A stretch of DNA of 64,000 nucleotides from contig JAZDEO010000028.1 of NCBI GenBank assembly GCA_043808705.1, positions 2,703 to 66,702 of the forward strand, read 5' to 3'. The position numbers and the translations under genes were made by a program. Below the pieces are notes generated by a model. The model had not been told where the DNA came from and made no database searches. It was given only the letters and a program-made list of their open reading frames with translations. Below, in pieces: positions 30,301 to 47,003 of this stretch (positions are counted from its first letter, which is position 1; every line of letters starts with the position of its first letter). This stretch comes from an archaeon (GTDB taxonomy: Archaea > Nanobdellota > Nanobdellia > SCGC-AAA011-G17 > GW2011-AR20).

Positions 30301-30325
30301 TTGAAATATTTTTTTATTTTAATTA

Positions 30326-30403
30326 TCCTAATCGAGTAGTAACAGAAAACCTTAAAATACTTAAAAACCATTAAAAAGCTGAGTTAAAATGTCCTTAAAA
30401 AAC
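30326..30403 (+). promoter_or_regulatory. Orphan copy of the metalloprotease promoter module plus first 5 codons (ATGTCCTTAAAAAAC), then diverges and stops early
   Basis: ~75 nt near-identical to 36703-36789 (AGTAGTAACAGAAAACCTTAAA(A)TACTTAAAAACCATTAAAAA…TTAAAATGTCCTTAAAAAA). Confidence 0.6.
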
Positions 30404-30407
30404 AAGC

Positions 30408-31670
30408 TTAATTGGTTTTTATTTTTTCTAAACTATAAGGCAATATTAAAGAATATTCAATATCTTTTTGTGTATTTAGATTAATTAAGTACTTCTTTTT
30501 AGTTTTAGGATATTCTTTCATAAAAGCGTCAAGACCATTGAAATCATCAGATTTTATATTTTGTTTAAACTTTACTTCTAAAGGTATTTGTAAGCTTATA
30601 TTGTCTATAATAAAATCTACTTCAGTTTTATTTTTGTCCTGCCAAAATTTTATATTTTTGATACCCTTTTTTATTAGTTCAGAAAGCACAAAACCCTCAA
30701 ATAAAAAACCAATATCATTCCTTAAGGAGATTTCATTAAAATTCTTAATAAAAAAGTTTCTAACACCATTATCAATAAAATATACTTTTGGGATCTTTAC
30801 AAGTTCTTTATTTTTATTGGTATAAAATGGTTTTAATAAATAAACAAGATATGTTTCTTTCAATATTTCTATATAATTTTTCACTTCTTTATATCTTAAT
30901 GAAAACTTTTCTGAGATTTCTTCATATTTAATCTTTTGACCGTGGTTTACAGCCAGGTATTCTATTAAATTTTTTATATCTAAAATCTTTTCTATGTGTA
31001 AGTAACTGATTAAGTCTTTTTTTGCATATAAGTCAAATATGCTTTCTAGAACTTCTATTTTTTCTTCTTTAGTGTTCTTTAAAACAACCCCAGGATATCC
31101 ACCAAAAATGAGAAATTCTTCTAATAAGTGATTTAATTCAGGTAATAAGATGTAAAGACCATCTCCCTCTAGATTTTTTGCATTATTTAGTTTTTCAATA
31201 ATCTTATCATCTTGTTTGAACCATAAAAATTCTTCAAAATCTAATGCAAAAAGCTCGTTTACTTTTTTTCTGCCAGCAAGACTTTCCTGTACTTGGTCTT
31301 TTATAACCAAAGATGAAGAACTGGAGGCATAAATCTTTATATTATCAAAATTATCATAAACATTCTTCATAATATTTGCAAGATTAATATATTTTTGGAA
31401 TTCGTCCAAGAATAAATAATAAAAATCCTTTTCACTTTCTTTATAACCATTTAGCTTTAGAGTATTAATTAAATTTTCAAAGGTACTTATTTTTTCATAA
31501 TTGGATAGAATATCCAAATCAAGAAAAAGGCATTTGTTAGTTTTTGAAAGCTCTTTATAAAGCTCTTTTAATAATGTTGTTTTTCCAACCTGTCTTGGAC
31601 CTAAAATTATAGATATCTTTTTATCTTTTCTTTGTTCTTTTATCCTTTCAAACAGTTTTCTTGGTAGCAT
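30408..31670 (-). CDS. AAA+ ATPase (AAA_14 + DUF4143 family), paralog 1
   Basis: Walker A ILGPRQVGKTTLLKEL; paralogous to 31867-33126 and 35299-36687. Confidence 0.75.
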   Translation of the reverse strand: MLPRKLFERIKEQRKDKKISIILGPRQVGKTTLLKELYKELSKTNKCLFLDLDILSNYEKISTFENLINTLKLNGYKESEKDFYYLFLDEFQKYINLANIMKNVYDNFDNIKIYASSSSSLVIKDQVQESLAGRKKVNELFALDFEEFLWFKQDDKIIEKLNNAKNLEGDGLYILLPELNHLLEEFLIFGGYPGVVLKNTKEEKIEVLESIFDLYAKKDLISYLHIEKILDIKNLIEYLAVNHGQKIKYEEISEKFSLRYKEVKNYIEILKETYLVYLLKPFYTNKNKELVKIPKVYFIDNGVRNFFIKNFNEISLRNDIGFLFEGFVLSELIKKGIKNIKFWQDKNKTEVDFIIDNISLQIPLEVKFKQNIKSDDFNGLDAFMKEYPKTKKKYLINLNTQKDIEYSLILPYSLEKIKTN

Positions 31671-31810
31671 TTTGTGTTTTTGTTTGTATTTTTATTCTAA
31701 ATTACATCTTTCTTTATTCTAGAGTACTCTAAAATTACTAAATATAGAATAATAGAGTACTATATAAACCTTTCCCTTTTCATATTTTTATTGTTCTATT
31801 TTATATTATC

Positions 31811-31850
31811 CCAACAAAGTAGTAACAGAAAACCTTAAATACTAATATTA
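31811..31850 (+). promoter_or_regulatory. AGTAGTAACAGAAAACCTTAAATAC promoter-module copy (orphan) between AAA paralogs
   Basis: Matches the module at 30334, 36712, and (reverse complement) 44217; a diverged copy is at 33207. Confidence 0.5.
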
Positions 31851-31866
31851 GAAATTATATAGTTAA

Positions 31867-33126
31867 TTATATTGTTGTTTTGTTTAATAATACAAAATAA
31901 AATGGTATAACTTTAATTGTTTTATCTTCAAAATTTATCTCTTGTTTTTTGTTATAACTGATTATGTATCCTATCTTAATATTAAATTTCTTCATGAATT
32001 TTTTTAAACCATCAATATCTATCTTTCCATATTTTATTTCTATAGGTTTTATTATCCCTTTATCCATTTTTATTATGTCTACCTCATTTTTTGATGTATC
32101 TATATAAAAGAATTCAGCTTCTAATTGAATTACAATAAAGTTCTCAAAGGCTTTTGATATTTTTTCAGAGTCTATTAAATCGGGATGTATTATTGAACAA
32201 TAGAACTTCTTTGACTTCTTTTCTGTTTTTCTTATGTTTCTTGAAAAATTATAAAGTTTTCTTATTAAGAAAGAATCCTCAAGATACCTTAAATACAAGC
32301 TTAATGTTTGCCTGGATACAGATAACTCTGAACTTAGCTTGCTTATTTCTATAATTTGTCCTGGATTTAACATTATTATTCTTACTATCTTATCAAGTAA
32401 ATCAATATCCTTAATATCAAAAATTTCGGGAATATCTTTATAGATTATCTTTTCGATTATGCTTTCTTTTAGATATTTTTTGCATGTTTCTATATCTTCA
32501 TTTATTAACTCTGGAAAGCCGTTTGTGATTATATACTGCCTGAATAGATTTAATATATCTCTTTCATACAGTTCTAGATTTTCTCCAATCTTAATATTTT
32601 TAAAAGATATAAATTCTTTAAAGCTTAAAGGTTTTATACTAAATTCATAGAATCTACCTGCGAGACTCTCTCTAGATTTCTTTCTTATAAATAGAGATTC
32701 AGAACCAGAAATTATAAATTTTATATTAGGATAGTTATCATAATATCTTTTTATTTGTTCTTCCCAGTTTTCTAATTTTTGTATTTCATCAAAAAAGAAA
32801 ATATATTTTTCACTTTCAATATTTTTTCCAAATATGTCACAATAAGCTTCTATTACTTCTCTTATTTTAACATCATTAAAATAATCAAAAGAGAAATATA
32901 CAACATTTTCTTTGTTTAGAATTTTTAAATTCTCTTCTATTATTTTAAACATTATTGTTGTTTTTCCTACCCTTCTTAAACCTGTAAGTGCAATAATCTG
33001 TCTTTTATCAATAAATTTTTTTATTTCACCATAAATCTCTCTTGATTTAAACTCTATAGAGAAATCTTTAGTCCACCATTTATTAACATCTCTAAATGCT
33101 GATTTTATATCACTTATTTCTTGCAT
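31867..33126 (-). CDS. AAA+ ATPase (DUF4143 family), paralog 2
   Basis: Walker A LTGLRRVGKTTIMFKI; paralog. Confidence 0.75.
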   Translation of the reverse strand: MQEISDIKSAFRDVNKWWTKDFSIEFKSREIYGEIKKFIDKRQIIALTGLRRVGKTTIMFKIIEENLKILNKENVVYFSFDYFNDVKIREVIEAYCDIFGKNIESEKYIFFFDEIQKLENWEEQIKRYYDNYPNIKFIISGSESLFIRKKSRESLAGRFYEFSIKPLSFKEFISFKNIKIGENLELYERDILNLFRQYIITNGFPELINEDIETCKKYLKESIIEKIIYKDIPEIFDIKDIDLLDKIVRIIMLNPGQIIEISKLSSELSVSRQTLSLYLRYLEDSFLIRKLYNFSRNIRKTEKKSKKFYCSIIHPDLIDSEKISKAFENFIVIQLEAEFFYIDTSKNEVDIIKMDKGIIKPIEIKYGKIDIDGLKKFMKKFNIKIGYIISYNKKQEINFEDKTIKVIPFYFVLLNKTTI

Positions 33127-33245
33127 CTTATAATTAACTTATTATTAATAATATGTTAAGTGTGATTAACATATTTAAATGTTTCTATTTTATATCATTA
33201 TAATCAAGTAGTAACAGAGAAGATTATATAGTTAAAAAGAATAAA

Positions 33246-33270
33246 GAGCGAGAAAATTTTGTGCCTAAGC
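33246..33270 (+). repeat. Repeat A (GAGCGAGAAAATTNTGTGCCTARGC), copy 1
   Basis: Copies at 33246, 33997, 40366, 41391 (partial) and 46891. Confidence 0.7.
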
Positions 33271-33329
33271 CGTCAAGTTACAATTAAAACAATAAACATT
33301 TAAATATGTAAATTAATGTATTCAGTAAG

Positions 33330-33617
33330 ATGAAATACTATATTAAAACAATCAAGTTAAAGGCTTTGCCTGTATTAAAGAAGTATAATATAGCTAGAGC
33401 CGGTATATTCGGAAGTTATGCTAGAGGAGACTATAAAAAGAATAGTGATGTAGATATGTTAATTGAAGTTAAAGATGGTTTCAGTTTACTTGACTTAATT
33501 GGTTTAGAAATGGAACTTAAGAAAATTTTAAAGAAGAAGGTTGATTTATTGACATATGGTTGTATTCATCCTTTATTGAAGGAAAAAATATTAAATGAAG
33601 AGATAAGGATAATATGA
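33330..33617 (+). CDS. minimal nucleotidyltransferase (MNT) antitoxin-type
   Basis: GIFGSYARGDYKKNSDVDMLIEV motif (GS…D.D). Confidence 0.8.
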   Translation: MKYYIKTIKLKALPVLKKYNIARAGIFGSYARGDYKKNSDVDMLIEVKDGFSLLDLIGLEMELKKILKKKVDLLTYGCIHPLLKEKILNEEIRII

Positions 33618-33976
33618 AAAAGGACCCATTAATTTTTATTAGTCATGTTTCAGATAGTATAAACAATATAGAATCATTCTCTAAAAATTTATCTAAAGAT
33701 AAGTTTATTAAAGATAAATTAAGACAAAGTGCGATTATAAGGCAACTAGAAATAATTGGAGAGGCAACAAAAAATCTCCCTTTGGAATTTAGAAAAAAAT
33801 ATCCTGAAACCAAGTGGAAGGAAATTGCTGGGTTAAGAGACAAAATAACCCACCACTATTTTGGCATTAATTTGAATATTGTCTGGGAGGTTGTTGAAAA
33901 GGATATACCTAAATTAAAAGAGAATATCAAAAATATTTTAGATGATTTAAAAGAAGAGAATTCTAATAAAACTTAA
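33614..33976 (+). CDS. HEPN (DUF86) toxin-type protein
   Basis: RDKITHHYFGINLNIVWEVV (Rx4-6H HEPN motif); overlaps the MNT stop. Confidence 0.8.
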   Translation: MKKDPLIFISHVSDSINNIESFSKNLSKDKFIKDKLRQSAIIRQLEIIGEATKNLPLEFRKKYPETKWKEIAGLRDKITHHYFGINLNIVWEVVEKDIPKLKENIKNILDDLKEENSNKT

Positions 33977-33996
33977 TAAGAAAACTTACAATTAAT

Positions 33997-34021
33997 GAGC
34001 GAGAAAATTTTGTGCCTAGGC
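33997..34021 (+). repeat. Repeat A, copy 2
   Basis: GAGCGAGAAAATTTTGTGCCTAGGC. Confidence 0.7.
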
Positions 34022-34105
34022 TGTTTAGTTTTTAGTAATAGAAGATTGTTCCGAAAAGTTTATAAGTAAGATGTAGTTTACATATCTTACAATAGGAGGT
34101 AAAAA

Positions 34106-34995: not shown

Positions 34996-35060
34996 TCTAT
35001 CGTCGTTAAAAAGCGACTCCAAAAAGAGGAGCTTTTTGCTTTAAAGAAAAAATATTTAAA
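34996..35060. terminator. Repeat B: bulged hairpin flanked by A- and T-runs on either strand (bidirectional terminator-like), copy 1
   Basis: ATCGTCGTTAAAAAGCGACTCCAAAAAGAGGAGCTTTTTGCTTTAAAGAAAAAA; copies at 34996, 41412 and 46916. Confidence 0.5.
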
Positions 35061-35069
35061 AGAAAATTA

Positions 35070-35230
35070 AAATTTTATTGGTTGTTTCCCTGCGACCAGC
35101 CCCCACCACCAGAACTGGAATATATAATAATATTCTGCCAGTTATAATAATTTATCATAAAAGATGTCCAATAACAACAAGATTCTTCATAAGGTAGAGT
35201 AAAAACAACATCCAGAATTTTGTACATAAC
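35070..35230 (-). pseudogene. 3'-terminal fragment of a paralog of the Cys-rich surface protein gene (…SSGGGGWSQG-like end)
   Basis: GCGACCAGCCCCCACCACCAGAACTGGAATA… aligns with the 3' end of 47004-48920 (47010-47140). Confidence 0.45.
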
Positions 35231-35285
35231 TTAAAAGGTTATTTTAAAGTAAGAAACTACTTTTCTTCAAAACTTCCTTTACTGC
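35213..35285. repeat. Repeat C (ATTTTGTACATAACTTAAA…TTAAAGTAAGAAAC…TTCTTCAAAACTTCCTTT), copy 1
   Basis: Second copy at 41478-41550. Confidence 0.55.
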
Positions 35286-35298: not shown

Positions 35299-36687
35299 CT
35301 ATTCTAATAACCATTTCCATAAAGGAATAAACTGTATTCCCTGCTCTTCTTTTTCCAAATCTTTCGTAATAACAATCAGTTCTTTTGTCTTATTAAACTT
35401 ATTTTTAAAGTCCAGTAAACTATTTATCTCTCTCTCATCTATTTTATTAGTGTAAGAAACATTAATGGCTGTTAAACTCTGGTCTTTATTCTTTATAACA
35501 AAATCAACTTCATACTTATCTTTCCAGTAATATACATCAAGTTCCTTTCTTCTTAGTTCTATGAATACAAGGTTTTCAACAAGCTTTCCCTCATCCTTAG
35601 AAAATTTAAATGAAACCGCATTTCTTAATCCATTATCTATACAGTATATTTTTCTTGGTTTTTGAATCATAATTGATTCTTTTAAAGAATAAGAAAAATA
35701 CTTTAACTGAAATATCAAATAAGCTTCTTCTAAGTAATTTAAATACTCTCTTAGACTATTAATATTAATACCAATATTTTTAGATATCTTATTGTAACTA
35801 AATTCTGTAGATATATTAGTTATGGTATAATAAGCTAATTCTGTTAATTTTCCCATTTCCCTAACATTTTTTGATTTGACTATATCTCTAAATAAAATAC
35901 CATCAAAATATTCCTTTAATCTTTTATTATTTATATCATCATTATTTTCCAATACAACCTCTGGAAATCCGCCTTTGTTTAAATAATCTAAGAGATAATG
36001 CTTTATTTCCTCTTTTTGTAGTATCATGCTATCTATCTTAACTTGATTAAAATTAAGAAATTCTTTAAAAAATAAAGGAAAGATTTGTTTTGTTAAAATT
36101 CTTCCAGTAAGTAATTTTAGTAAATTGCTTGAAAGCATAGAGCTATTTGAACCAGTAATAATAAATTTTATTTCGTTTCCATACATATCATAATATTTTT
36201 TAATCCACCTTTCCCATTCATTAATAACTTGTATTTCATCAAAGAAAACATATTTTCTACCTTTTGGATTATTTATTTCTAAAAATGTTGTAAATACTTG
36301 CTCAAGAACTTCAGTACTTTTATCTTGCAAAGGCTCATCAAAATTAAAGTATAATATATTTTTTGCATTTGTATTATTATTTATTAAATCATTAATTGTT
36401 TGATAAATAAATGTTGATTTTCCAGACCTTCTAACACCAGTTAATACTAGTATTTCCTTTGTTTTTATTAATTTAAGAATATCTTTTAAAATCTCTCCTC
36501 TTATTATCAATACCTTATTCTCTGGAACTTTTTTATATTCCCACCATACATTCCATTTTACAAGTAATTCTTTCATGTTTATTTCTTTCATACCAATAAT
36601 TAATAATTTGTTGCTTATAAATCTTTGCATTGTGATTAAAGGTTTACTATCAAAACTATCATTTATGATTAAAGGTTTATAAGACAT
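35299..36687 (-). CDS. AAA+ ATPase (DUF4143 family), paralog 3
   Basis: Walker A LTGVRRSGKSTFIYQ; paralog. Confidence 0.75.
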   Translation of the reverse strand: MSYKPLIINDSFDSKPLITMQRFISNKLLIIGMKEINMKELLVKWNVWWEYKKVPENKVLIIRGEILKDILKLIKTKEILVLTGVRRSGKSTFIYQTINDLINNNTNAKNILYFNFDEPLQDKSTEVLEQVFTTFLEINNPKGRKYVFFDEIQVINEWERWIKKYYDMYGNEIKFIITGSNSSMLSSNLLKLLTGRILTKQIFPLFFKEFLNFNQVKIDSMILQKEEIKHYLLDYLNKGGFPEVVLENNDDINNKRLKEYFDGILFRDIVKSKNVREMGKLTELAYYTITNISTEFSYNKISKNIGININSLREYLNYLEEAYLIFQLKYFSYSLKESIMIQKPRKIYCIDNGLRNAVSFKFSKDEGKLVENLVFIELRRKELDVYYWKDKYEVDFVIKNKDQSLTAINVSYTNKIDEREINSLLDFKNKFNKTKELIVITKDLEKEEQGIQFIPLWKWLLE

Positions 36688-36702
36688 ATTTTATATAATT
36701 AT

Positions 36703-36774
36703 CCTAATCAAGTAGTAACAGAAAACCTTAAATACTTAAAAACCATTAAAAATACAATTAAAAGGTTGATTAAA
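36703..36774 (+). promoter_or_regulatory. Metalloprotease promoter module (AGTAGTAACAGAAAACCTTAAATACTTAAAAACC…), full copy
   Basis: Directly upstream of the ATG at 36775. Similar module in reverse complement upstream of the paralog at 44174-44235. Confidence 0.55.
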
Positions 36775-38193
36775 ATGTCCTTAAAAAATATTGTTAATGG
36801 AATAAAACATAAAGCAAAGATAGCTGCATTTACAGGACTGGCTGCTTTGGTGTTAGCAGGAACTCCTAAAAAAAGTGATGCTCAAATGCTTTATGGATAT
36901 GTTACTGATGTTATAACAGGACAAGGGATTCCTGATATGAAGGTAATAAATGATGGTGTAGATTCAACTGTTACAGATATTGACGGATATTATAATTTAT
37001 TTGTGACTTATGCTCCTCCTGTTGGTCCTCCAATCATACATCCACAGCTTATAAGGGGAAGATTAATTGATGTATTTAATATTAGGGGAAGTAAAGTTGG
37101 AACACTAAATGAAGGACAAGGATTAGAGGACTTTATAAGAGATAGAGGATTAGCCTTTTCAAATATATATATTTTAAGAACACCTGTACATGATTATTTT
37201 TCTAAGGGTTTTGCAAATCAGCTTGTTGTTATGTTAAATAATAGTGTTGTTGGAACAGGAAAAGAATCTTATACTATTAGAACTGTAAATGCAGATCAGA
37301 ATAATTTTGTTGTTAATTCATCTAGTACAAACCAGAACGCTTTAAGGAATAATAGGAGTAATTATAATGGTCTTAGAGGAAATAGAAGTCTAGATGAAAC
37401 TATTCCTTTATTAATATTCAGAGATGAATCTGATACAACTGATGGAAAATATTGGGACATTGAAAGACAAAATTTTGAAATTTCAGGAGATTCTGCTCAT
37501 AATGAAGAGATGGTTCCAACTTGGATGACTCATATTAGCAATCCTTTTGATTCTACTTTTGTGGATTATAATTACTGGGCAACTATCTTAGATTTTGACC
37601 CAGTTGACCCCACTAATTATGATTTCAATAGTTGGAAATATTGGGATTATGATTCTATAGGAGTTTATGTTCCTCAAGAACCACCTGGTTCAACTCATGA
37701 TTATCAACAACTAGTCATAAATTCTTTAATGGGAAAAACTTCACAAGGAGATCCTTATGATGGATGGAATACTGGAGTAGCTGACTTAAACAGAGCTAAT
37801 AATTATCCTGTATTTTTTATTGCTCCTGACTGCACTTATGTTATTAATAATGGTGGAGCTTTTGTTCAATATTTTCCTACTGCATCATTCAATGCTCACG
37901 TTACTACACTTAGAGGACCCCCTTCACCTTTAAAGAGAATAGAATTTAATTTAGGTTACTTTAATTCAAAATCAGATTCTATTTTTTTAGAAATATCTGC
38001 TCATGAATTTGGTCATGTACAAGGATTAGCAGAAGCATATGATAATGTATATTCTGATAGAATAATGTATGGTAATGTAGGTAATCCTCTCTTCTATACG
38101 GGTGATGGAACAATAGATGATTATTCAAAAAGCGTAGCTACTATAATACGTAACAGAACAGACAATAATTATGGAATTATTAAAAAAAAGTAA
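36775..38193 (+). CDS. secreted HExxH zinc metalloprotease (paralog 1)
   Basis: Start MSLKNIVNG… at the ATG at 36775 (the track's 36766 is a TTG start). Signal peptide; ISAHEFGHVQGL zinc motif near the C-terminus. Confidence 0.6.
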   Translation: MSLKNIVNGIKHKAKIAAFTGLAALVLAGTPKKSDAQMLYGYVTDVITGQGIPDMKVINDGVDSTVTDIDGYYNLFVTYAPPVGPPIIHPQLIRGRLIDVFNIRGSKVGTLNEGQGLEDFIRDRGLAFSNIYILRTPVHDYFSKGFANQLVVMLNNSVVGTGKESYTIRTVNADQNNFVVNSSSTNQNALRNNRSNYNGLRGNRSLDETIPLLIFRDESDTTDGKYWDIERQNFEISGDSAHNEEMVPTWMTHISNPFDSTFVDYNYWATILDFDPVDPTNYDFNSWKYWDYDSIGVYVPQEPPGSTHDYQQLVINSLMGKTSQGDPYDGWNTGVADLNRANNYPVFFIAPDCTYVINNGGAFVQYFPTASFNAHVTTLRGPPSPLKRIEFNLGYFNSKSDSIFLEISAHEFGHVQGLAEAYDNVYSDRIMYGNVGNPLFYTGDGTIDDYSKSVATIIRNRTDNNYGIIKKK

Positions 38194-40453: not shown

Positions 40454-40744
40454 ATGAAAACCAATATTGAAAAAATAAAATTGAAGGCCTTACCTATACT
40501 AAAAAAACATAATATAGCTAAAGCCGGGATATTTGGCTCTTTTGTTAGAGGTGAAAACAATAAAAATAGCGATGTAGATATTTTAGTAGAGATAAAAGAC
40601 AAAAAAATGAGTCTACTTGGATTTATACACATAAAGCATGAACTTGAAGATGCCTTAGGAAAAAAAATAGATTTGGTTGAGTATAAAATGATAAGACCCG
40701 AGATTAAAAATAATGTTCTAGAAGAGGAAATAAGAATAATATGA
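40454..40744 (+). CDS. minimal nucleotidyltransferase (MNT)
   Basis: GIFGSFVRGENNKNSDVDILVEI. Confidence 0.8.
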   Translation: MKTNIEKIKLKALPILKKHNIAKAGIFGSFVRGENNKNSDVDILVEIKDKKMSLLGFIHIKHELEDALGKKIDLVEYKMIRPEIKNNVLEEEIRII

Positions 40745-41043
40745 AAAACAAAATTTTAAATTCAAAATTTATTATAAAAAAAATTGAAGAGAATAAATAT
40801 AATATTCATAAGTATAGTGTAAAAAAGATAGGTCTGTTTGGTTCTTATTTGAAAAATAATCCAAATAAAAGAAGTGATATAGACTTCATTGTAAGATTAG
40901 ATAAACCCACTTTCGATAATTATATGGAATTAAAATTTTTACTTGAAAAACTGTTCCATAAAAAGGTTGATTTAGTCACTGAAGAAAGCTTAAAACCGGC
41001 ATTAGAATACATAAAAGAGGGTGCCTTATATGCAAAAATATAA
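40741..41043 (+). CDS. second minimal nucleotidyltransferase (MNT)
   Basis: GLFGSYLKNNPNKRSDIDFIVRLD. Confidence 0.7.
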   Translation: MKNKILNSKFIIKKIEENKYNIHKYSVKKIGLFGSYLKNNPNKRSDIDFIVRLDKPTFDNYMELKFLLEKLFHKKVDLVTEESLKPALEYIKEGALYAKI

Positions 41044-41389
41044 AGTTTATTTAGACGATATAATTGAGTCTATAAAAAGAATAGAGAAATATACTAAAAA
41101 TGTATCCTATGAAAATTTTATCAAAAATAAACTATTAATAGACGGAACTGTCAGAAATCTGGAAATTGTAGGTGAAGCAGTAAAAAGAATATCTGAAGAT
41201 ATAAAGAAAAAATATCCAGATGTAGAATGGAAAAAGATTGCAGGACTTAGAGACATACTTATTCATGAATATTCTGGAATTAATCTAAAAATTGTTTGGG
41301 ACGTAATTACTAATAATTTACCTAAACTAAAGAAGAATATTAAAAAAATTCTAAAAGATTTAAAAGAAAAAAATTCTAACCAAACTTAA
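41021..41389 (+). CDS. HEPN (DUF86) toxin-type protein
   Basis: RDILIHEYSGINLKIVWDVI Rx4-6H motif. Confidence 0.8.
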   Translation: MPYMQKYKVYLDDIIESIKRIEKYTKNVSYENFIKNKLLIDGTVRNLEIVGEAVKRISEDIKKKYPDVEWKKIAGLRDILIHEYSGINLKIVWDVITNNLPKLKKNIKKILKDLKEKNSNQT

Positions 41390-41390
41390 T

Positions 41391-41474
41391 AAGAAAATTA
41401 TGTGCCTAAGCTAGTAAAATATCGTCGTTAAAAAGCGACTCCAAAAAGAGGAGCTTTTTGCTTTAAAGAAAAAA
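41391..41474. repeat. Partial repeat A fused to repeat B (copy 2), followed by repeat C copy 2 at 41478-41550
   Basis: AAGAAAATTATGTGCCTAAGC then TAGTAAAATATCGTCGTTAAAAAGCGACTCC…. Confidence 0.6.
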
Positions 41475-41582
41475 GTAAAATTTTGTACATAACTTAAAGA
41501 TAAAAATTTAAAGTAAGAAACCAAGGTTTCTTCAAAACTTCCTTTGTAGATGTTTAATATTAATTTTGAAATAAAAAAGGTT

Positions 41583-42883: not shown

Positions 42884-44173
42884 TTACTCTTCAACAAAAT
42901 TATATAAATATCCTGGTCCAGTTACATAGTAAGGATACTGTAGTACATGATTTTGCATTGTTTCTATTTCTTCTGGTTGGAAGTCAAAAGCCTGTACAGG
43001 AGCATAAGAAATATAATCAGGATCATCACTATGTCCTTCCATCCCTAGACCATGTATCCCTAGTTCATGACAGAAAGTTCTGTATATATTAATAAAATTA
43101 GGATAATTACTTTTTAAATTTAAAACTCCCCCAACAAAATAATAGTTCCCACCAATATTTTGATAATTAGGGCTCCAATTACTATTACCTGTTGTGATGT
43201 AATTTAAAGAAATGTTAGCACTATCTGGAGTGCTTACTTCTCTAAATAAATCTAATCCTGTTTTATTATTCATACTGTCTAGAGCAGCTCTTTCTGTATT
43301 AATGTAAAGTTGCCAGTTGCTTCCACAATACTGTTGAGCTTGTGGTGCATTTAAGTAAACTCTTTGAGGATAAGGAGTTAAAGAATTATTAGGATATTCT
43401 CCATAATTTACTATAAAACAGTTTCCACTTGGAAAGGTTTCTAAATCTTTGAATAAATCCAATAATTCATCATAATACTGTGTTCCAATTGTAAACTGAG
43501 GAATCAGTCTAACATCTTTAGTTATGGAAGTATCTACAGCTAGAGTATCTATATAATCATAAAAACTTCCAATGAATTCAGGGATATTATCATCAGAAAC
43601 TGTAAAAATATAATCTGTATCTGTTCCATTAACTTCTTTAACACCAGCTTTTGAAGAATTATTAGTATTATTAACAGAATTTAAACTCATAATTGGTTGA
43701 TATCTTACATTATATTGAATATTTCCTCTTATTACATTATTCTGATTAAGGACTATTATTCTTTGAATGCCTTCCCCTATATTATCATTTCTTTGTATAA
43801 AATATATGCCTGAGCTTAAATCATTTACTTTATTTTCTAAAGGGTCTCCTTCAAACCTTTTAATTACTCTACCCATTACATCAAAGATTTCATATCTTAT
43901 CTGTCTTCCTGCCTGTGGATGTATTATAGGACCTATAGGAACAGATGAGCCTGGAATTTCATAAAATCCATCCAAGTCAGTATAGTCCTGACCTAGTCCA
44001 GGAGCATCAACCATGGCATCTGCTATAGGATCTCTAGGATAACTTCCAGAATCATTAATATGACCTTCAATGGATTGAGCATTAGCTGTATTTAAATTAA
44101 AAGCTAAGGCTAGTCCTGTAACCAGTAATCCTATATTTGTTTTTGCTGATTTTAATCTGCTTTTTAAGGACAT
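42884..44173 (-). CDS. secreted HExxH zinc metalloprotease (paralog 3)
   Basis: MSLKSRLKS… signal; CHELGIHGLGMEGH; ~85% similar to paralog 2 over the N-terminal 200 aa. Confidence 0.55.
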   Translation of the reverse strand: MSLKSRLKSAKTNIGLLVTGLALAFNLNTANAQSIEGHINDSGSYPRDPIADAMVDAPGLGQDYTDLDGFYEIPGSSVPIGPIIHPQAGRQIRYEIFDVMGRVIKRFEGDPLENKVNDLSSGIYFIQRNDNIGEGIQRIIVLNQNNVIRGNIQYNVRYQPIMSLNSVNNTNNSSKAGVKEVNGTDTDYIFTVSDDNIPEFIGSFYDYIDTLAVDTSITKDVRLIPQFTIGTQYYDELLDLFKDLETFPSGNCFIVNYGEYPNNSLTPYPQRVYLNAPQAQQYCGSNWQLYINTERAALDSMNNKTGLDLFREVSTPDSANISLNYITTGNSNWSPNYQNIGGNYYFVGGVLNLKSNYPNFINIYRTFCHELGIHGLGMEGHSDDPDYISYAPVQAFDFQPEEIETMQNHVLQYPYYVTGPGYLYNFVEE

Positions 44174-44385
44174 TTTAACTCATTAAGCTATTATAAGTTT
44201 ATGTATTTAAATCTTTCTGTTACTACTATGTTGAGATAATTAATTTAAGTTAAGTCAAGGGGGCAAACTAGGGTTGCGGCACTCTTCTTGTAGTGTTCTT
44301 TGGTACTTTATCTTTTAAGAAACTCTTCAATATCATCAAATTTAATATTAACATAAGTCTTTAATTTATTTTTTGTAAATAGTTA

Positions 44386-45054
44386 TCATAAAAAGCTACA
44401 AGGAGAGACTTTATTTATGATATATTCAAAATCATAATTTTTTGATTGTGAAGGAAAAATACCTTCTTCTTTTTTATCTTTGTTTATTATTTTTTTAAGT
44501 CTTAAATTATAAATATTTCCATTATTTATTACAAAGTTGACAATGATTAAATCATTTTTTAACCACCCTCTCAAATAATATCCACAAGGAATAAATTCTT
44601 TTTTATTTATTACTATTTTTTCTTTGCTTGCGTGAAAGTTACCTGTAATAAATATGTTTATTTTTTTATTATCTAAATTTAAGTTTTCTTTAATCTCTCT
44701 ATACATAAGATAATCTCTATCCTTTATTTCATTTGGGTCAACACAAATAATCTTTAGATTAAAATCTAACAGACACTTTATTAAATATAAGTTTTCTTTG
44801 CTGTCTCTACCATCTTTATTAGAGTTTTTAAAGAAAGGCATCTTAAACAAATCATTTTCATTTATAGATTTTACATAATCATTGATATATTTCTGTTGAT
44901 CTTTTGGGATTTCTAAGAAAATTAAGTTTATATCATCTTTTAATAAAGTAATAATTTTTTGTATTATCAATGGGATTTCTTTTGTACCATGAATTTCACC
45001 AAATAAAAGAAGTTTCTTGTCTTTTACTCTTTTTAGTAAATAATTATATTCCAT
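44386..45054 (-). CDS. Tiki/TraB/ChaN-superfamily (GExH…GxxH) putative peptidase; likely start at the third in-frame Met
   Basis: LLFGEIHGTKE and ITGNFHASKE paired His motifs; the track ORF extends to 45126, overlapping the ATP-grasp 3' end. Confidence 0.4.
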   Translation of the reverse strand: MEYNYLLKRVKDKKLLLFGEIHGTKEIPLIIQKIITLLKDDINLIFLEIPKDQQKYINDYVKSINENDLFKMPFFKNSNKDGRDSKENLYLIKCLLDFNLKIICVDPNEIKDRDYLMYREIKENLNLDNKKINIFITGNFHASKEKIVINKKEFIPCGYYLRGWLKNDLIIVNFVINNGNIYNLRLKKIINKDKKEEGIFPSQSKNYDFEYIINKVSPCSFL

Positions 45055-45059
45055 TGTAC

Positions 45060-46025
45060 TTAAAGCAGGTTTTCTGCTACATCTTTTGTTAAATTGTAAC
45101 CCGATTTTAATTCTAACCATAACCACTGTCCATTTGGGTTAAGTTCCAAAAAAACGTATTTTCCATCTTTTGTAAATATAAAATCAAATTCCCCAAAGAA
45201 TAGATTATAATGCTTGATCATATCACTGCAAAAGGAAGAAACATTTATAGGTAAATCAACCAATTCATATCTTACATTTTTAAAGTCATATCTCCTAAAA
45301 TCTATTTTTGATAATTCTGAATCTTGAGAATGAATAGCAATACCAATAACTTTATTTTCTAAAGCTGTAATTCTTAATTCATATTCCTTTTTTATATAAG
45401 TCTGAAAAAGACTCGGATTGTTTTTAATAAGATGGGAATATTGCATATTCTCTTCATTTACAATATTATTGTAGGTTGTTAAATATTCTCCATTATCTTT
45501 TTTAACAAGAGCTGCCTTTTGCAGTTTATGGCAAATTTTATGATTCCTTTCTCTATGGACATTATAAAACTTAATAAATATTTCAGAATTATTTGTTAAA
45601 ATAGTTTCAGGTATATCTATACCGCCATAATTTTTAGCAAAACATAATTGATCTATTTTATTGTTTGCTGCAAAATTAGCCTGTGGTCTATTAACTACTT
45701 TCCCCTTATGTGTAAAAAGTAAACCTTCCCAAGTTCTTTTTGTTTCTGTAAAAATAATCTCTTCAAGTTCTTTTGGTGTATCTTTAGGTATCTCTGGATC
45801 CATAACTCTTCTGTTCCATATATTCCAACCTTCATCAATAGTTATTGTTTTGTCACTATTAGCAACAATATAAAGACCACTATTAGAATCAAAACTAATT
45901 CTATAATTCTCTATAAGTTTGTCTGTATTTATCCTAAAATACTCTATTTTTTTATCTTTAAAGAAATTACAAACCGATTCGGCGTGTAAGTCTTCTTCAT
46001 ATGTTAAAATTAATACTTTATTCAC
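45060..46025 (-). CDS. MdnC/MvdD-type RiPP ATP-grasp ligase (graspetide macrocyclase-like)
   Basis: N-terminus VLILTYEEDLHAESV…EYFRINTDKLI and C-terminus YVFLELNPNGQWLWLEL parallel the microviridin ligase pattern from memory (VLIVTFSRD…FRFDTDRFP…YIFLEINPVGEFFWLEL). Internal NIWNRRV and ELRITALENKVIGIAI blocks also match. Confidence 0.65.
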   Translation of the reverse strand: MNKVLILTYEEDLHAESVCNFFKDKKIEYFRINTDKLIENYRISFDSNSGLYIVANSDKTITIDEGWNIWNRRVMDPEIPKDTPKELEEIIFTETKRTWEGLLFTHKGKVVNRPQANFAANNKIDQLCFAKNYGGIDIPETILTNNSEIFIKFYNVHRERNHKICHKLQKAALVKKDNGEYLTTYNNIVNEENMQYSHLIKNNPSLFQTYIKKEYELRITALENKVIGIAIHSQDSELSKIDFRRYDFKNVRYELVDLPINVSSFCSDMIKHYNLFFGEFDFIFTKDGKYVFLELNPNGQWLWLELKSGYNLTKDVAENLL

Positions 46026-46047
46026 TTTATATATTTAAAATAAAAAA

Positions 46048-46236
46048 TTAAAAATCATCTATAACCGGAATCAACTTTATAGTACATGCTGTTGGTGTAA
46101 TTGCCATCTTATAATCTCCAGATATAACTGGTTTTTCTAGATACTGTTGGCAAAATAATGTATATTCTATGCATAAATTTTGATTCGAATTATTCGCTTT
46201 TACTCTTTCCTTTCCAACTATTGATTCTATTTCCAT
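46048..46236 (-). CDS. candidate graspetide precursor peptide (62 aa)
   Basis: Strong Shine-Dalgarno (GGAGGT) 6 nt upstream. Stop is 22 nt before the ligase start. C-terminal core TPTACTIKLIPVIDDF carries Thr/Lys donors and Asp/Asp acceptors. Leader segment YTLFCQQYL loosely resembles the PFFARFL recognition motif. Confidence 0.4.
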   Translation of the reverse strand: MEIESIVGKERVKANNSNQNLCIEYTLFCQQYLEKPVISGDYKMAITPTACTIKLIPVIDDF

Positions 46237-46394
46237 GTTTTATACCTCCACAGTTTTATATATTTTATTGATATTTAAATTTATCTTATATATTTTTACA
46301 TATAAGGTCTATTTTATTAGATATTTTAATTTTAAGAGGTATATAAAGACCTTAGTAAATTTTTTTCTATAATTTTTTTAGTAATTTATTTATT

Positions 46395-46823
46395 CTAAAC
46401 CCTTATCTTAACAATTTCCAATTCCTTAGGATACTTCTTAATCTTCTCTTCAAATTCCTCATCTGTTTCACTGCATAAGATTTCATATATAATTCCTTCA
46501 GTAATATCAAATACATCACATCTGCATCCATTATCAAAAATAGCTTCTGTAATGAACTTATGATTCTTGTTCATTAAATCTAGACATATATCTAATTTCT
46601 TCATAATATGTTTCTTACTTTCTGACAAGCTGAATCTTAAGTTATTGATATGGCTTCCACTTCTATTTGAAAATCTAATCAAACTTAGATTATTGCTAAG
46701 AACAAAGAGCTTTTCCTTATATCTGTTAAATGCTCTTATCTTACATCTCATTTGACTTTGTTTCATCTTTATTATATTCATTATAACCACCTCCGACAAA
46801 TAGGTGGTTATCAAATAGGGCAC
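46395..46823 (-). CDS. hypothetical protein, duplicated family (paralog of 39866-40261); the true start is probably internal, at the residue aligned with the paralog's start
   Basis: Near-identical to 39866-40261. Confidence 0.4.
   Translation of the reverse strand: MPYLITTYLSEVVIMNIIKMKQSQMRCKIRAFNRYKEKLFVLSNNLSLIRFSNRSGSHINNLRFSLSESKKHIMKKLDICLDLMNKNHKFITEAIFDNGCRCDVFDITEGIIYEILCSETDEEFEEKIKKYPKELEIVKIRV
46785..46820 (-). promoter_or_regulatory. Conserved SD-sequestering hairpin (ATAACCACCT…AGGTGGTTAT), copy 2
   Basis: Perfect 10-bp inverted repeat spanning the RBS of the 46395 gene. Confidence 0.5.
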
Positions 46824-46890
46824 ATACCAAATTTTGGAGCCATATTCTTTTAATGGCGTGACCTTTTCCTTGAAAAGGGAAAAGAATAAT

Positions 46891-46980
46891 GAGCGAGAAA
46901 ATTATGTGCCTAAGCTAGTAAAATATCGTCGTTAAAAAGCGACTCCAAAAAGAGGAGCTTTTTGCTTTAAAGAAAAAATA
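46891..46980. repeat. Repeat A copy 5 followed directly by repeat B copy 3 (terminator-like hairpin)
   Basis: GAGCGAGAAAATTATGTGCCTAAGC + TAGTAAAATATCGTCGTTAAAAAGCGACTCCAAAAAGAGGAGCTTTTTGC…. Confidence 0.65.
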
Positions 46981-47003
46981 TTTAAAAGAAAAATAAAATT
47001 TTA

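Follow-up and report, generated by a model that had tools for sequence, protein, structure and literature searches.

The region at 30-47 kb of the window, the 64-kb stretch of DNA analyzed here, is a patchwork of about 17 kb in which self-contained gene cassettes meet at a few reused non-coding modules, and it is probably a chromosomal recombination hot spot of a DPANN archaeon with a small genome, at which cassettes are swapped at these conserved modules. The window belongs to a chromosomal contig of a metagenome-assembled genome, and housekeeping genes flank the island on the left and on the right (ribosomal proteins, RNA polymerase subunits, exosome, proteasome, MetRS, enolase, and PFK). 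A preliminary description had proposed a mosaic, variable island stitched together by repeat families A, B, and C and a promoter module. When the window was compared with itself, as in the dot plot suggested there, the majority of its significant repeats fell at 30-47 kb; all four module families were found and were non-random, and contigs of sister strains carried the same junction types with other cassettes, in agreement with that reading. The modules, the sharp junctions, a pair of empty and filled sites within the window, and cassette differences between strains were observed directly; we infer that the recombination is homology-driven.

Table 1. Features of the island, with positions in the window.
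Feature	Position	Strand	Evidence or remark
Inverted repeat, 17-bp perfect, GC-rich, GGCTCTGGTGCAACCCT / AGGGTTGCACCAGAGCC, loop ~60 nt	30176..30298		island left edge
Module P copy 1 (11-mer 30335-30345)	30296..30412	+	77% identical to 36671-36798; alignment
AAA+ ATPase 1 (AAA_14 + DUF4143)	30408..31670	-	Pfam 1.5e-28, 1.7e-36; PADLOC PDC-S01 4.7e-84
Module P copy 2 (11-mer 31818-31828)	31781..31841	+	between AAA+ genes 1 and 2
AAA+ ATPase 2 (AAA_14 + DUF4143)	31867..33126	-	Pfam; PDC-S01 1.3e-62
Module P copy 3 (11-mer 33207-33217)	33165..33232	+	abuts leader remnant and repeat A
Solo repeat A, left of cassette 1	33235..33273	+	leader profile positions 2-35
MNT-HepT cassette 1 (MNT 33330-33617, HepT 33614-33976)	33330..33976	+	Pfam NTP_transf_2 1e-16, HepT-like 1.1e-29; RDKITH motif in HepT
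Solo repeat A, right of cassette 1, upstream of VapBC	33993..34024	+	sequence match
VapB (MazE-type antitoxin)	34106-34378	+	Pfam
VapC (PIN_3)	34359-34781	+	Pfam
DUF2283 protein	34785-34991	+	Pfam
Repeat B copy 1 (A-tract, hairpin, T-tract)	34998..35052		terminator scan, - strand match
Cys-rich surface-protein gene, 3' fragment, ~41 codons	35075..35197	-	84% nt identity to 46924-47123; translation
Repeat C copy 1 (hairpin AAGAAAC..GTTTCTT)	35216..35280		85% identical to 41479-41545
AAA+ ATPase 3 (AAA_14 + DUF4143)	35299..36687	-	Pfam; PDC-S01 9.8e-112
Module P copy 4 (11-mer 36711-36721)	36671..36798	+	putative promoter of secreted protein 1
Secreted protein 1 (HEFGH)	36775..38193	+	sequence motif; no Pfam family
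Lrp/AsnC-type double-HTH regulator	38485-39489	+	Pfam HTH_24 8e-19
Unknown gene, 126 aa	39464-39844	+	no family
p131a, 128 aa	39866..40252	-	start ATG preceded by GAGGTG
p131a leader	40253..40393	-	RNA fold -39.3 kcal/mol, z -3.8
MNT-MNT-HepT cassette 2 (40454-40744, 40741-41043, 41021-41389)	40454..41389	+	Pfam
Truncated repeat A GAAAATTATGTGCCTAAGCT, right of cassette 2	41390..41413	+	sequence match
Repeat B copy 2	41420..41474		inside 41392-41474, 100% identical to 46896-46978
Repeat C copy 2	41479..41545		85% identical to 35216-35280
Secreted protein 2 (HEMTH)	41583-42827	-	Por_Secre_tail-like domain
Secreted protein 3 (HELGIH)	42884-44173	-	Por_Secre_tail-like domain
Module P copy 5 (11-mer 44217-44227)	44152..44248	-	putative promoter of secreted protein 3
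ChaN/Tiki-like protein	44386-45126	-	family search
MvdC/D-like ATP-grasp	45060-46025	-	family search
Graspetide precursor candidate, 62 aa	46048-46236	-	part of the graspetide-type cluster
p131b, 128 aa	46395..46781	-	89% amino-acid identity to p131a
p131b leader, ending in repeat A (46887-46917)	46782..46917	-	'empty' form of the cassette site
Repeat B copy 3, directly downstream of the Cys-rich gene 47004-48920(-)	46924..46978		terminator-like score

The gene inventory given earlier was largely recovered. Pfam detected the families of both HEPN/MNT modules (one of them MNT-MNT-HEPN), of VapBC, and of the DUF2283 protein, and it placed AAA_14 and DUF4143 domains in all three AAA+ paralogs, whose pairwise identity is only 27-34%. 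These AAA+ genes match the candidate defense family PDC-S01, which backs the defense-island label only in part. Orthologues of cassette 1 occur in the sister contigs L011 (76% nucleotide identity) and L015 (84%), the MNT2a protein of cassette 2 shares 98% of its amino acids with a copy in L014, and the VapBC pair is 85% identical in nucleotides to positions 9126-9840 of L001, a Nanoarchaeota contig. The three secreted paralogs are likewise present, although the HExxH motif ascribed to all of them was found in two (HEFGH and HEMTH), the third reading HELGIH; as no peptidase family matches any of the three, the label 'protease' is unproven. Secreted proteins 2 and 3, which lie in tandem, share 72% protein and 81% DNA identity, and secreted protein 1 is only 25-30% identical to them. 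Given these low identities, the AAA+ genes, and secreted protein 1 relative to the other two, are old paralogs and not recent copies. The translation of 35075-35197(-) (..LPYEESCC..YSSSGGGGWSQG.., ending at a stop) matches the C-terminus of the Cys-rich gene at 47004-48920(-), which bears out the 3' fragment reported there. The stretch 44386..46236(-) is a graspetide-type RiPP cluster, a gene association that has been described (PMC8939145). The inverted repeat at the left edge has a strong RNA fold (-43.8 kcal/mol, z -7.85), is present in one copy within the window, and matches no Rfam family. Insertion-sequence genes are present elsewhere in the window.

Module P, a putative promoter and 5'UTR module, has the core AGTAGTAACAG, of which five exact copies occur, every one within the island and in line with the minimum of five counted before; with one mismatch allowed, the window holds 7 matches against 1.1 expected. 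Copy 1 has a TATA-like box, the core, a 5'UTR, and, from the ATG at 30389, the opening ~8 codons of a protease gene, which AAA+ gene 1 cuts short with its 3' end. In the modules that had been called orphaned the 11-mer is perfect and an AAA+ gene adjoins each, so that they may still be in use; the 11-mer is invariant although the adjoining genes are only 27-34% identical. Both B and C form terminator-like hairpins that presumably act as terminators. B has the three copies counted before (34998, 41420, and 46924); the terminator scan matched the first of them on the - strand and gave a terminator-like score to the last, which is likely in its native place as the terminator of the Cys-rich gene. 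The two copies of C stood as described. The C core also occurs in L001, L008, L014, and L015, where the stems differ yet stay complementary, and the cores of both B and C were found in other lineages.

Repeat A (GAGCGAGAAAATTWTGTGCCTARGC) is the conserved first ~30 nt, that is, the 5' end, of the hairpin-forming leader (~100 nt) of p131, an orphan gene of which two copies had been noted with a length of 131-142 aa. Both copies are there, but each encodes 128 aa when read from the ATG that follows GAGGTG. The five copies of A were also recovered, four of them full (33246, 33997, 40366, and 46891, against 0 expected) and one truncated, which lies at 41390 on the right flank of cassette 2. Homologues of p131 numbered only 26 among 5.8 billion proteins, all of them from DPANN or metagenomes. 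The gene and its leader form a unit of ~540 bp with sharp left and right ends, and the leader is kept in L006, L008, L009, L011, L012, and L025. Within the p131a leader, the Shine-Dalgarno sequence is inside a hairpin at 40254-40286, and an irregular hairpin of ~100 nt follows at 40292-40390, its 5' arm carried by the full repeat A at 40362-40393. The full leader site folds into an imperfect ~100-nt hairpin whichever strand is taken, and it does so as DNA as well (z about -3).

Solo copies of A always start at the same end of the leader (profile position 2-3) and stop at varying positions, 28 to 74, an arrangement that fits homology patches of unequal length. The right end of A is sharp, with at least six unrelated sequences coming next. 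In the solo copy at 33993..34024, which is unfolded (z +0.9), 31 of 32 nt are invariant across the window, L011, and L015, whereas the spacer after the HepT stop is far more variable; solo copies are kept up rather than decaying. Repeat A stands on both sides of MNT-HepT twice in the window and also in L011, and in L015 MNT-HepT has a 5'-truncated leader on one side and a solo A on the other. L001 has four A copies, each placed after the stop codon of a cassette with two genes; three of these cassettes are recognizable toxin-antitoxin-type pairs, and a p131 homologue adjoins.

The 46.9-kb locus corresponds to the 40.4-41.5-kb locus with 1,027 nt missing, namely the MNT-MNT-HepT cassette and one repeat copy, a segment that has the 21-nt direct repeat AGAAAATTATGTGCCTAAGCT at its borders, and it looks like the empty form of the 40.4-kb locus. 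To the right of the crossover, 41392-41474 and 46896-46978 are 100% identical over 83 nt, whereas to its left the p131 gene and leader of the two loci are only 87% identical, a difference that points to a recent exchange inside A. Independent metagenomic contigs from sister strains share the frame p131 gene, leader, A, cassette, A, B, C, protease, and differ in its contents (ParE, an IS element, aRF1, or a Bro-N protein, with the graspetide cluster present or absent). In L011, MNT-HepT occupies the A site that is left empty at 46.9 kb in the window, and the graspetide gene cluster of 44.4-46.2 kb is absent; in L015, a ParE toxin-antitoxin pair lies between B and C. Such presence/absence differences within one frame had been anticipated and indicate that the region is truly variable and that an assembly artifact is unlikely, although these contigs are short metagenome pieces and some of the differences could reflect different loci, not alleles.

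In the hot-spot explanation that we favor, discrete expression units (MNT-HepT and VapBC pairs, p131 with its leader, PDC-S01-like AAA+ genes, secreted HExxH proteins, and the graspetide cluster) would be joined by the promoter and 5'UTR of P, the leader start A, and the terminator-like hairpins B and C. Since these modules recur, they would serve as portable homology patches, and recombination at them would cause units to be gained, lost, duplicated, or converted. Toxin-antitoxin cassettes would come and go by Campbell-type insertion and excision of an A-plus-cassette unit at the A of a p131 leader, and after insertion a direct repeat of A would stand on either side of the cassette. The conservation of solo A beside its variable spacer exceeds that of a passive homology patch and points to either a direct function or strong gene conversion; the simple model accounts for neither. 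The orientation of A relative to the cassette genes is opposite in the window and in L001, and this counts against the hot-spot model.

A rather doubtful, though possible, alternative is that the leader acts as RNA to regulate the p131 mRNA in cis; the long hairpin and the hairpin hiding the Shine-Dalgarno sequence would silence a toxic nuclease as a riboswitch, thermometer, or RNA antitoxin. Repeat A would then matter as RNA, and solo copies in neighboring transcripts could pair with one leader arm or would otherwise be recombination by-products. Immediately upstream of p131, the leader passes into a 10-12-bp hairpin with GGAGGTG just before the ATG; the loops of this hairpin vary, and one end pair shows a compensating change (AUAACC../..GGUUAU versus AAAACC../..GGUUUU). 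Besides the leader fold (z -3.8), pairing holds in 97.8% of cells, and at 3 pairs (7 cells) both partners differ, a result equalled in only 1/500 shuffles, but this covariation set holds 8 sequences from about 3 lineages and the majority of its pairs are invariant. The terminal stem occurs in five distinct complementary versions, and one-sided GCCAU/AUGGC changes preserve G-U pairs on the p131-sense strand only; however, the + strand folds nearly as well. Against an RNA role also stand the lack of a conserved promoter upstream of A, where the sequence differs in every context, the lack of an Rfam match for the leader, and the absence of tandem RNA repeats such as type III toxin-antitoxin systems have. 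Nor does it explain why solo A is conserved in L001, where the p131 leader is without A. We consider it unlikely that A is the site recognized by a dedicated system for cassette capture. Such a system would be a functional analogue of an integron that lacks an integrase, in which the p131 protein or a partner would bind or cut A or the folded leader, and toxin-antitoxin cassettes would be integrated, excised, or converted there; alternatively, the unit would be similar to a homing endonuclease that drags its neighbors along. The structure model of p131 (pLDDT 90) has a predicted fold resembling PD-(D/E)xK nucleases, from which a nuclease role may be supposed, and its nearest folds are Vsr/DUF559, endonuclease I, a homing endonuclease, a Holliday-junction resolvase, and TnsA-N, but the resemblance is weak to moderate (best E-value 2e-5, TM 0.58). 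The layout is alike in two lineages, with p131 pointing away, then the leader with A, and then an A-separated cassette array. Capture would also suit the strong conservation of solo A, the sharp A end beside at least six different contexts, the start of the 83-nt identity tract within A, and the hairpin of the full site on both strands with its variable terminal stem. However, solo copies are unfolded half sites without the attC-like fold of integrons, their left edge varies, unlike a fixed crossover point, the p131 leader of L001 is without the A-bearing hairpin, and the distant p131 homologues of L002, L017, L018, and L024 have no comparable leader and no A.

It is very improbable that the mosaic reflects a chimeric or collapsed contig mis-joined at repeats. 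The 83-nt exact repeat is long enough to mislead a short-read assembler, but all remaining repeats are 60-88% identical, hence not collapsed, and both p131 genes lie on a single 66.7-kb NCBI contig. Moreover, most junction types are also present in independent contigs of other samples: L014 has leader-A-MNT2a (92% over 447 nt), L011 and L015 have HepT-A, L015 has both A-B and C-protease, and L011 has protease-P with the sequence beyond (94%). It is hardly credible that the island is a virus, a plasmid, or another self-mobile element that has integrated. Its accessory, defense-like, and toxin-antitoxin genes, the strong inverted repeat at the left edge, and the insertion-sequence genes elsewhere in the window would be compatible with such an origin, but no integrase, replication, capsid, or conjugation gene was found in the island, no tRNA gene was found in the 64-kb window, and the base composition of the island is only slightly below that of its flanks. 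Searches of viral contigs returned a single isolated match to the A core and none to the 3' arm of the leader. Against PHROGs, a DUF2283-like family of unknown function was the sole match, a marginal one (E 0.005), and neither p131 nor the secreted proteins matched anything.

The junction repeats are conserved, functional-looking modules (leader, terminators, and promoter) rather than debris, present in several DPANN lineages, and repeat A also brackets toxin-antitoxin cassettes in related genomes.

The island at 30-47 kb lies between housekeeping genes in a window with a G+C content of about 27%. Both flanks encode ribosomal proteins, RNA polymerase subunits, exosome and proteasome components, SBDS, MetRS, enolase, PFK, and aNAC, together with type IV pilus/archaellum ATPase and membrane genes. 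No tRNA was found in the 64-kb window, and no Rfam family matched it at gathering score. One island protein was 100% identical to NCBI entry MFH1209826.1 (V1663_03485), which has a paralog on the same contig (V1663_03530), and its nearest named relatives were found in Nanoarchaeota and Woesearchaeota MAGs; on this basis the organism is probably a DPANN archaeon.

Pfam searches agreed with the preliminary description on the three AAA_14+DUF4143 ATPases, on the two HEPN/MNT modules (one of them MNT-MNT-HepT), and on VapBC and the DUF2283 protein, which were recognized as a MazE-type antitoxin, a PIN_3 toxin, and DUF2283; a regulator of the Lrp/AsnC type was also present. The reported 3' fragment of the Cys-rich surface-protein gene, when translated, gave the true C-terminus of the full gene. 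Two other entries stood in part. Three secreted paralogs had been described as HExxH proteases, and all three are there, each with a signal peptide, an N-terminal β-sandwich part, and a Por_Secre_tail-like domain; however, HExxH was seen in only two (HEFGH and HEMTH, the third reading HELGIH), and no peptidase family matched any of them, the only matches at the motif being non-significant ones to matrixins (E about 0.5). The orphan gene reported as two copies of 131–142 aa does occur twice, but its length is 128 aa from an ATG preceded by GAGGTG; it is called p131 here. Protein identity was 27–34% among the AAA+ genes in pairwise comparison, 25–30% for secreted protein 1 against 2 and 3, 52% for HepT 1 against HepT 2, 58% for MNT1 against MNT2a, 72% for secreted proteins 2 and 3, and 89% for the two p131 copies, so that, judged from sequence, the paralogs appear to differ widely in age. 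The coordinates of features in and around the island are collected in the table.

Features of the island and of the surrounding window
Feature	Position	Strand	Remarks
Weak LAGLIDADG_3 and HTH matches, 491-aa ORF	3330-4805	-	between ribosomal-protein blocks; adjoins one GGGGGGGCGGAG.. repeat
..GGGGGGGCGGAGTTGTCCAGCTGTCCCATAT.. repeat	4802-4885		
..GGGGGGGCGGAGTTGTCCAGCTGTCCCATAT.. repeat	7169-7210		inverted
..GGGGGGGCGGAGTTGTCCAGCTGTCCCATAT.. repeat	63914-63997		just downstream of the TnpA gene
DDE transposase-like ORF	17544-18491		
Inverted repeat	30176-30298		island left edge; 17 bp, perfect, GC-rich, extended by AUUAAU pairs, about 60 nt enclosed
Palindrome-like TAGAGTACT(C/A)TA, twice	31700-31770		upstream of AAA+ gene 1; operator-like look
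36-aa ORF, previously unlisted	38279-38389	-	two Cys pairs (CKRC...CVC), zinc-ribbon look; in the 291-nt gap from secreted protein 1 to the Lrp/AsnC-type regulator
p131a	39866-40252	-	
p131b	46395-46781	-	
Graspetide/microviridin-like RiPP cluster	44386-46236	-	inside island
ChaN/Tiki-like protein	44386-45126	-	member of RiPP cluster
MvdC/D-like ATP-grasp ligase	45060-46025	-	Pfam pre-ATP-grasp score 41.4 against a cut-off of 27
Candidate precursor, 62 aa	46048-46236	-	ends ..TACTIKLIPVIDDF; directly upstream of ligase; putative precursor role
T2SSE/T2SSF genes	58336-61596		about 12 kb from island
IS200/IS605-type pair	62182-63713		TnpB-like short ORF, 234 aa; Y1 TnpA, 159 aa
Y1 TnpA	63234-63713		

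The toxin-antitoxin modules resembled known HepT-MntA and VapBC systems in domain pairs, gene overlap, and catalytic motifs (HepT Rx4H; MNT GSx2RG..DxD): NTP_transf_2/Polbeta and HepT-like Pfam matches were obtained in both MNT modules, where the RDKITH and RDILIH motifs were present, and the VapBC genes (MazE_antitoxin, 4e-8; PIN_3, 1.7e-24) overlapped by 20 nt. In contrast to the usual HepT-MntA, one module has two MNT genes, and both modules are bracketed by repeat A, described below. The three ATPases matched the PADLOC model PDC-S01 (AAA_14 + DUF4143; 4.7e-84, 1.3e-62, and 9.8e-112), which describes a candidate defence system only, so that a defence role would be putative; they are set apart from it by being deeply diverged, yet having the same upstream module P in common.

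The repeat copies listed in the preliminary description were also recovered: three of the terminator-like hairpin B, two of hairpin C, four full copies of repeat A (0 expected) plus a truncated one against the five claimed, and, for the promoter module P (at least five claimed), five exact copies of its invariant 11-mer AGTAGTAACAG, all within the island. Some P copies had been called orphaned, and those at 31.8 kb and 33.2 kb indeed have no downstream ORF of the secreted-protein family. In its complete form, P consists of a TATA-like box about 20 nt upstream of AGTAGTAACAG, followed by a 5'UTR of about 55 nt that leads to the ATG of a secreted protein; it heads such genes at 36.7 kb, at 44.2 kb, and in the sister-strain contig L011, and at 30.3 kb the first 8 codons of a secreted-protein gene are kept and then cut by the end of AAA+ gene 1. 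By coordinates, all AAA+ genes have a P copy in the upstream region, facing away. Because the 11-mer is perfect while the AAA+ genes are only 27–34% identical, P would either be under selection, for instance as an operator or start site in common use, or have been spread by conversion. A sigma-70 promoter scan, a model not applicable to an archaeon, returned fewer sites than in shuffled sequence.

Repeat B comprises an A-tract, a hairpin, and a T-tract, and had a terminator-like score on the minus strand in 3/3 copies. The copy at 46.9 kb, directly downstream of the Cys-rich gene, is probably in its native place, and the copy at 35.0 kb keeps the last 41 or so codons of that gene. Repeat C is a second hairpin, AAGAAACC..GGTTTCTT, whose core recurred in four contigs from other assemblies (L001, L008, L014, and L015) with stems that were different but complementary.

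Repeat A proved to belong to the p131 gene. The p131 unit of about 540 bp is 87% identical between 39840-40391 and 46368-46916, and it ends exactly with repeat A. A scan of metagenomes for the A core gave 13 loci, 9 of them true relatives; L003, L005, L010, L013, and L016 were set aside as chance matches, being GC-rich or unrelated. At the loci that include a p131 gene, A formed the outer end of a conserved stretch of about 140 nt upstream of p131, referred to here as the leader. In the genome collection, an A 25-mer had no match and a 20-mer had one, in a Kapaibacterium contig, which was judged to be chance; in viral contigs, a single isolated match was obtained with the A core and none with the 3' arm of the leader. 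An interpretation of A as a small ORF (ATGAGCGAG.., MSEKI..) was discarded, as the frame was lost after 6 codons and one copy had no ATG.

On the p131 strand, the leader was predicted to fold into two parts. The outer part is an irregular hairpin of about 100 nt whose closing stem UUAGGCACA/UGUGCCUGA continues through AAUUUU/AAAAUU and GC.CAU.AUUCUUUU/AAAAGAAUAUGGC and ends in a small terminal stem-loop; the inner part is a 10–12-bp hairpin (AUAACCACCU–loop–GGAGGUGGUUAU) holding the Shine-Dalgarno sequence, one base before the AUG. The RNA fold reached -39.3 kcal/mol (z -3.8). In an alignment of eight leader sequences, 97.8% of cells paired, and three pairs (7 cells) changed on both sides, a pairing score reached by 1 of 500 shuffles. 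The closing stem changed from GGCACA/UGUGCC to GCCACA/UGUGGC in the lineage of L009 and L012, and the terminal stem was found in five complementary versions. The opposite strand folded almost equally well, as did single-stranded DNA, and a few one-sided changes keep G-U pairs on the p131 strand only. No Rfam family matched the leader at gathering score, and matches at E values up to 10 were at chance level. We take this as moderate evidence that the leader is a conserved hairpin, which may act as RNA or as DNA.

Repeat A was also found alone, with the rest of the leader missing. A profile search showed that every isolated A begins at the same leader end (profile position 2–3) and that these copies stop variably, at positions 28, 31, 35, 45, 56, 57, or 74; leader 3' parts were found only joined to p131. 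A breaks off sharply at its outer end, where ..GTGCCTAAGCT(GT) gives way to at least six sequences unrelated to one another: the promoters of MNT and of VapBC, repeat B, and a further three from L006, L008, and L011. MNT-HepT cassettes are bracketed by A at 33246/33997 and 40366/41390 in the window and also in L011, and in L015, also a sister-strain contig, the cassette lies between a 5'-truncated leader and a solo A. The A copy that follows HepT was identical at 31 of 32 nt across the window, L011, and L015, whereas the roughly 25 nt between the HepT stop codon and A were much more variable and the sequence beyond A was unrelated; solo A thus does not appear to be decaying.

Within the window, the locus at 46.9 kb corresponds to that at 40.4-41.5 kb minus a segment of 1,027 nt, comprising the MNT-MNT-HepT cassette and one repeat copy, which has the 21-nt direct repeat AGAAAATTATGTGCCTAAGCT at its borders. 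Identity between the two p131 loci is 100% for 83 nt rightward of this repeat and no more than 87% in the p131 unit on its left, which points to the 46.9-kb locus as a probable chimera of recent origin, its crossover lying inside A.

A more distant Nanoarchaeota contig, L001 (GCA_018830825.1, JAHJRH010000005.1), has four A copies, each of them immediately behind the stop codon of a cassette of two genes (RHH + 89 aa, MNT + HEPN-like, 65 aa + ParE, and 89 + 111 aa). They lie next to a VapBC pair 85% identical in nucleotides to that of the window and to a p131 homolog, the orientation of A relative to the cassette genes is opposite to that in the window, and the repeated unit includes a C-terminal fragment of a Cys-rich ORF. 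The 7-kb array as a whole (L001 3100-10372) contains at least seven small cassettes of toxin-antitoxin type (RHH, MNT/HEPN twice, ParE, MazE-PIN, and others) and has repeat families of its own, among them Cys-rich C-terminal fragments (..WELKDGVDNDC..) fused to A; a second, truncated p131 5' end lies at about 7131-7178.

The preliminary description had taken the region for a variable mosaic island and had called for self-comparison and comparison with sister strains. That reading was supported. In a gapped self-comparison, most of the significant repeats of the window fell at 30-47 kb, and the related contigs, which come from other samples, kept the frame of the island and changed its content. 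L011 runs from a protease 5' end through P, a 94% match to 44249-44377, and a 161-aa ORF, which stands in place of the 2-kb graspetide cluster, to p131, leader, A, MNT-HepT of the window's 33-kb type, A, and an IS with a DDE transposase. The order in L015 is p131, truncated leader, MNT-HepT, A, B, a ParE toxin-antitoxin pair, C, and a protease 3' end, and that in L008 is an AAA+ 3' end, aRF1, C, A, leader, and p131. L014 has MNT2a (98% aa identity), A, the terminal stem, a degenerate leader, and a Bro-N protein replacing p131; a p131-like domain hidden in this protein was considered and rejected, there being no similarity to p131. Since most junction types of the window recur in independent assemblies, a chimeric assembly is argued against, the 83-nt exact repeat being the only remaining possible assembly trap.

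The p131 protein had only 26 homologs among 5.8 billion proteins, all from metagenomes or DPANN MAGs, and sequence searches of Pfam, NCBIfam, PADLOC, PHROGs, and the PDB returned no match. A third paralog (MFH1210269.1, V1663_05795; 75% identical) lies on a separate 13.9-kb contig of the same MAG. The AlphaFold model built with the 26 homologs had a pLDDT of 90. Its fold matches in the PDB were weak, the top one and many others being PD-(D/E)xK nucleases: CdiA-CT (4g6v; E 0.03, the best), influenza PA-N, Can2, and PvuRTs1I. Among predicted viral structures (BFVD), the best match was a 133-aa protein (E 2e-5, TM 0.58), followed by a haloarchaeal virus protein (TM 0.61), and further matches included Vsr/DUF559, endonuclease I, a "homing endonuclease," a Holliday-junction resolvase, TnsA-N, and restriction enzymes; most named matches belong to the PD-(D/E)xK nuclease superfamily, again as weak matches. 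E79, D89, E100, and K113 are among the invariant residues, and a classical ExK is absent. Our best guess from this model is that p131 may be a small PD-(D/E)xK-type nuclease. Distant homologs in L002, L017, L018, and L024 have neither leader nor A and sit amid small variable genes, often beside DUF2283. In the Woesearchaeota-like contigs L018 and L024, only a few genes separate them from those for an RsmB-type methyltransferase, PRPP synthetase, and the pilus proteins T2SSF/T2SSE. T2SSE/T2SSF genes are also present in the window, about 12 kb from the island, so this may be a conserved chromosomal neighbourhood for the variable spot.

Considering how the cassettes might have moved, we found no tyrosine recombinase (PF00589) among the approximately 68 ORFs of at least 110 aa in the 64-kb window, and the sole transposase genes there are the DDE gene at 17.5 kb and the IS200/IS605 pair at 62-64 kb. 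The arrangement is consistent with recombination at non-coding modules that are conserved and would serve as portable homology. The lengths of solo A vary while all copies are anchored at the outer end of the leader, and the empty/filled pair at 46.9 and 40.4-41.5 kb is Campbell-like, with the perfectly identical tract beginning in A; both argue for homology-driven recombination, in which A would be the preferred handle for toxin-antitoxin cassettes. Two facts exceed a simple homology model: solo A is strongly conserved, and the p131–leader–A–cassette layout is found in two lineages. These leave room for A as a recognized site, possibly for p131 itself, or for a role at the RNA level, as part of a leader silencing a toxic nuclease. 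The leader does resemble RBS-hiding leaders (riboswitches and thermometers) and type III loci in having a structured element, then a strong Shine-Dalgarno hairpin, then a nuclease-like gene, and in some lineages a U-run follows the hairpin, as in the RNA, terminator, and nuclease order of type III loci. Unlike riboswitches, however, it has no Rfam match, the p131 fold is neither that of ToxN nor that of AbiEii-type toxins, and a ToxIN-like layout was rejected because no tandem RNA repeats were found upstream of either p131. The p131 unit is also comparable with free-standing homing endonuclease genes and Vsr/DUF559 PD-(D/E)xK nucleases, as a small nuclease-like gene in a unit of sharp borders that occurs in many neighbourhoods and beside a tract of recently converted look; in contrast to them, the canonical (D/E)xK motif is not evident in this candidate nuclease, and no allele pair was recognized in which the target site is intact.

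The likeness to integrons is closer in layout than in parts. As in integron arrays and CALINs, archaeal ones included (PMC9668308), a conserved gene at one end is followed by small cassettes, often toxin-antitoxin pairs, with a short conserved repeat between them and strain-dependent presence, and the window cassettes are bounded by a conserved site with presence/absence polymorphism. An integron further has IntI (PF00589 with the IntI-specific patch) beside the array, which the window does not have. CALINs also have no IntI, so this absence alone does not exclude one. An attC at each border is an imperfect palindrome of 55–140 nt that folds as single-stranded DNA, whereas solo A is a non-folding half site: with flanks, solo copies gave z values of +0.9, +1.0, +1.7, and +1.0 (DNA, either strand), no better than shuffled sequence, and A as an attC-like site was rejected. 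The A copies of L001 folded at z about 0, and only the full p131 leader folds, at z about -3. Integron cassettes are, moreover, mostly promoterless and co-oriented, whereas TATA-like boxes precede MNT and VapB here and cassette orientation relative to A is opposite in the window and L001. With no tyrosine recombinase, no hairpins at A, cassettes with promoter-like sequences of their own, and unfixed orientation, the defining features of an integron are absent. There would remain an integrase-free cassette platform of DPANN archaea, in which p131 recognizes its own leader and A sites and cuts or nicks there, driving capture, excision, and conversion of toxin-antitoxin and other cassettes, which we regard as improbable.

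Several other elements were observed in the window. The inverted repeat at the left edge of the island is single-copy there and was predicted to fold as RNA at -43.8 kcal/mol (z -7.85); it had no Rfam match, and viral contigs gave matches to single stems, never to the inverted pair. Suggested options are a small RNA, a MITE-like relic, or a boundary element. The ..GGGGGGGCGGAGTTGTCCAGCTGTCCCATAT.. repeat was also found in the sister-strain contig L014 (1473-1609); its two inverted copies bracket the S9-L13-L18e-Rpo3 block, and these repeats may be IS ends or small elements derived from them. Y1 transposases act on DNA hairpins. One also adjoins a p131 homolog in L021, probably by coincidence. 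The graspetide cluster is absent from L011. Its ATP-grasp protein matched NCBIfam MvdC at 4e-54, but with a score of 183.7 against an equivalog cut-off of 425. Ligases of this type are known to be partnered by Tiki/TraB-family peptidases and by homologs of erythromycin esterase (PMC8939145). A cluster of graspetide type may be unusual in a DPANN archaeon.

The island itself is of an ordinary kind, a strain-variable region of toxin-antitoxin, defence, and surface-protein genes. In its clustering of toxin-antitoxin genes, STAND/AAA-type ATPases, secreted proteins, and orphan genes in a strain-variable part of an otherwise conserved chromosome, it is similar to the defence or "dark matter" islands and the hypervariable toxin-antitoxin-rich regions of archaeal genomes (PMC3632139, PMC4158269). 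It differs in that its joints are a small defined set of conserved non-coding modules (P, A, B, and C) and that one of these is linked to one particular orphan gene and reappears in different DPANN lineages. The type of island is known; what is added here is the anatomy of the joints and the p131–leader–A element, and the search of libraries and papers gave no description of this element.

Variable islands with many toxin-antitoxin and defence genes are common, and DPANN archaea have tiny genomes and depend on hosts. To our knowledge, how cassettes move has been described mainly for bacterial integrons and hardly at all for DPANN archaea. Here the joints are unusually readable: there is a short vocabulary of conserved non-coding modules, an empty and a filled locus in one contig, and a strongly conserved site of 30 nt that is linked to an orphan nuclease-like gene of several lineages, which makes the reshuffling of the island a concretely testable question. 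If only homology-driven exchange were at work, the island would still illustrate clearly how regulatory modules can serve at the same time as handles for recombination; if the p131 platform were true, it would be a functional analogue of the integron, assembled from unrelated parts.
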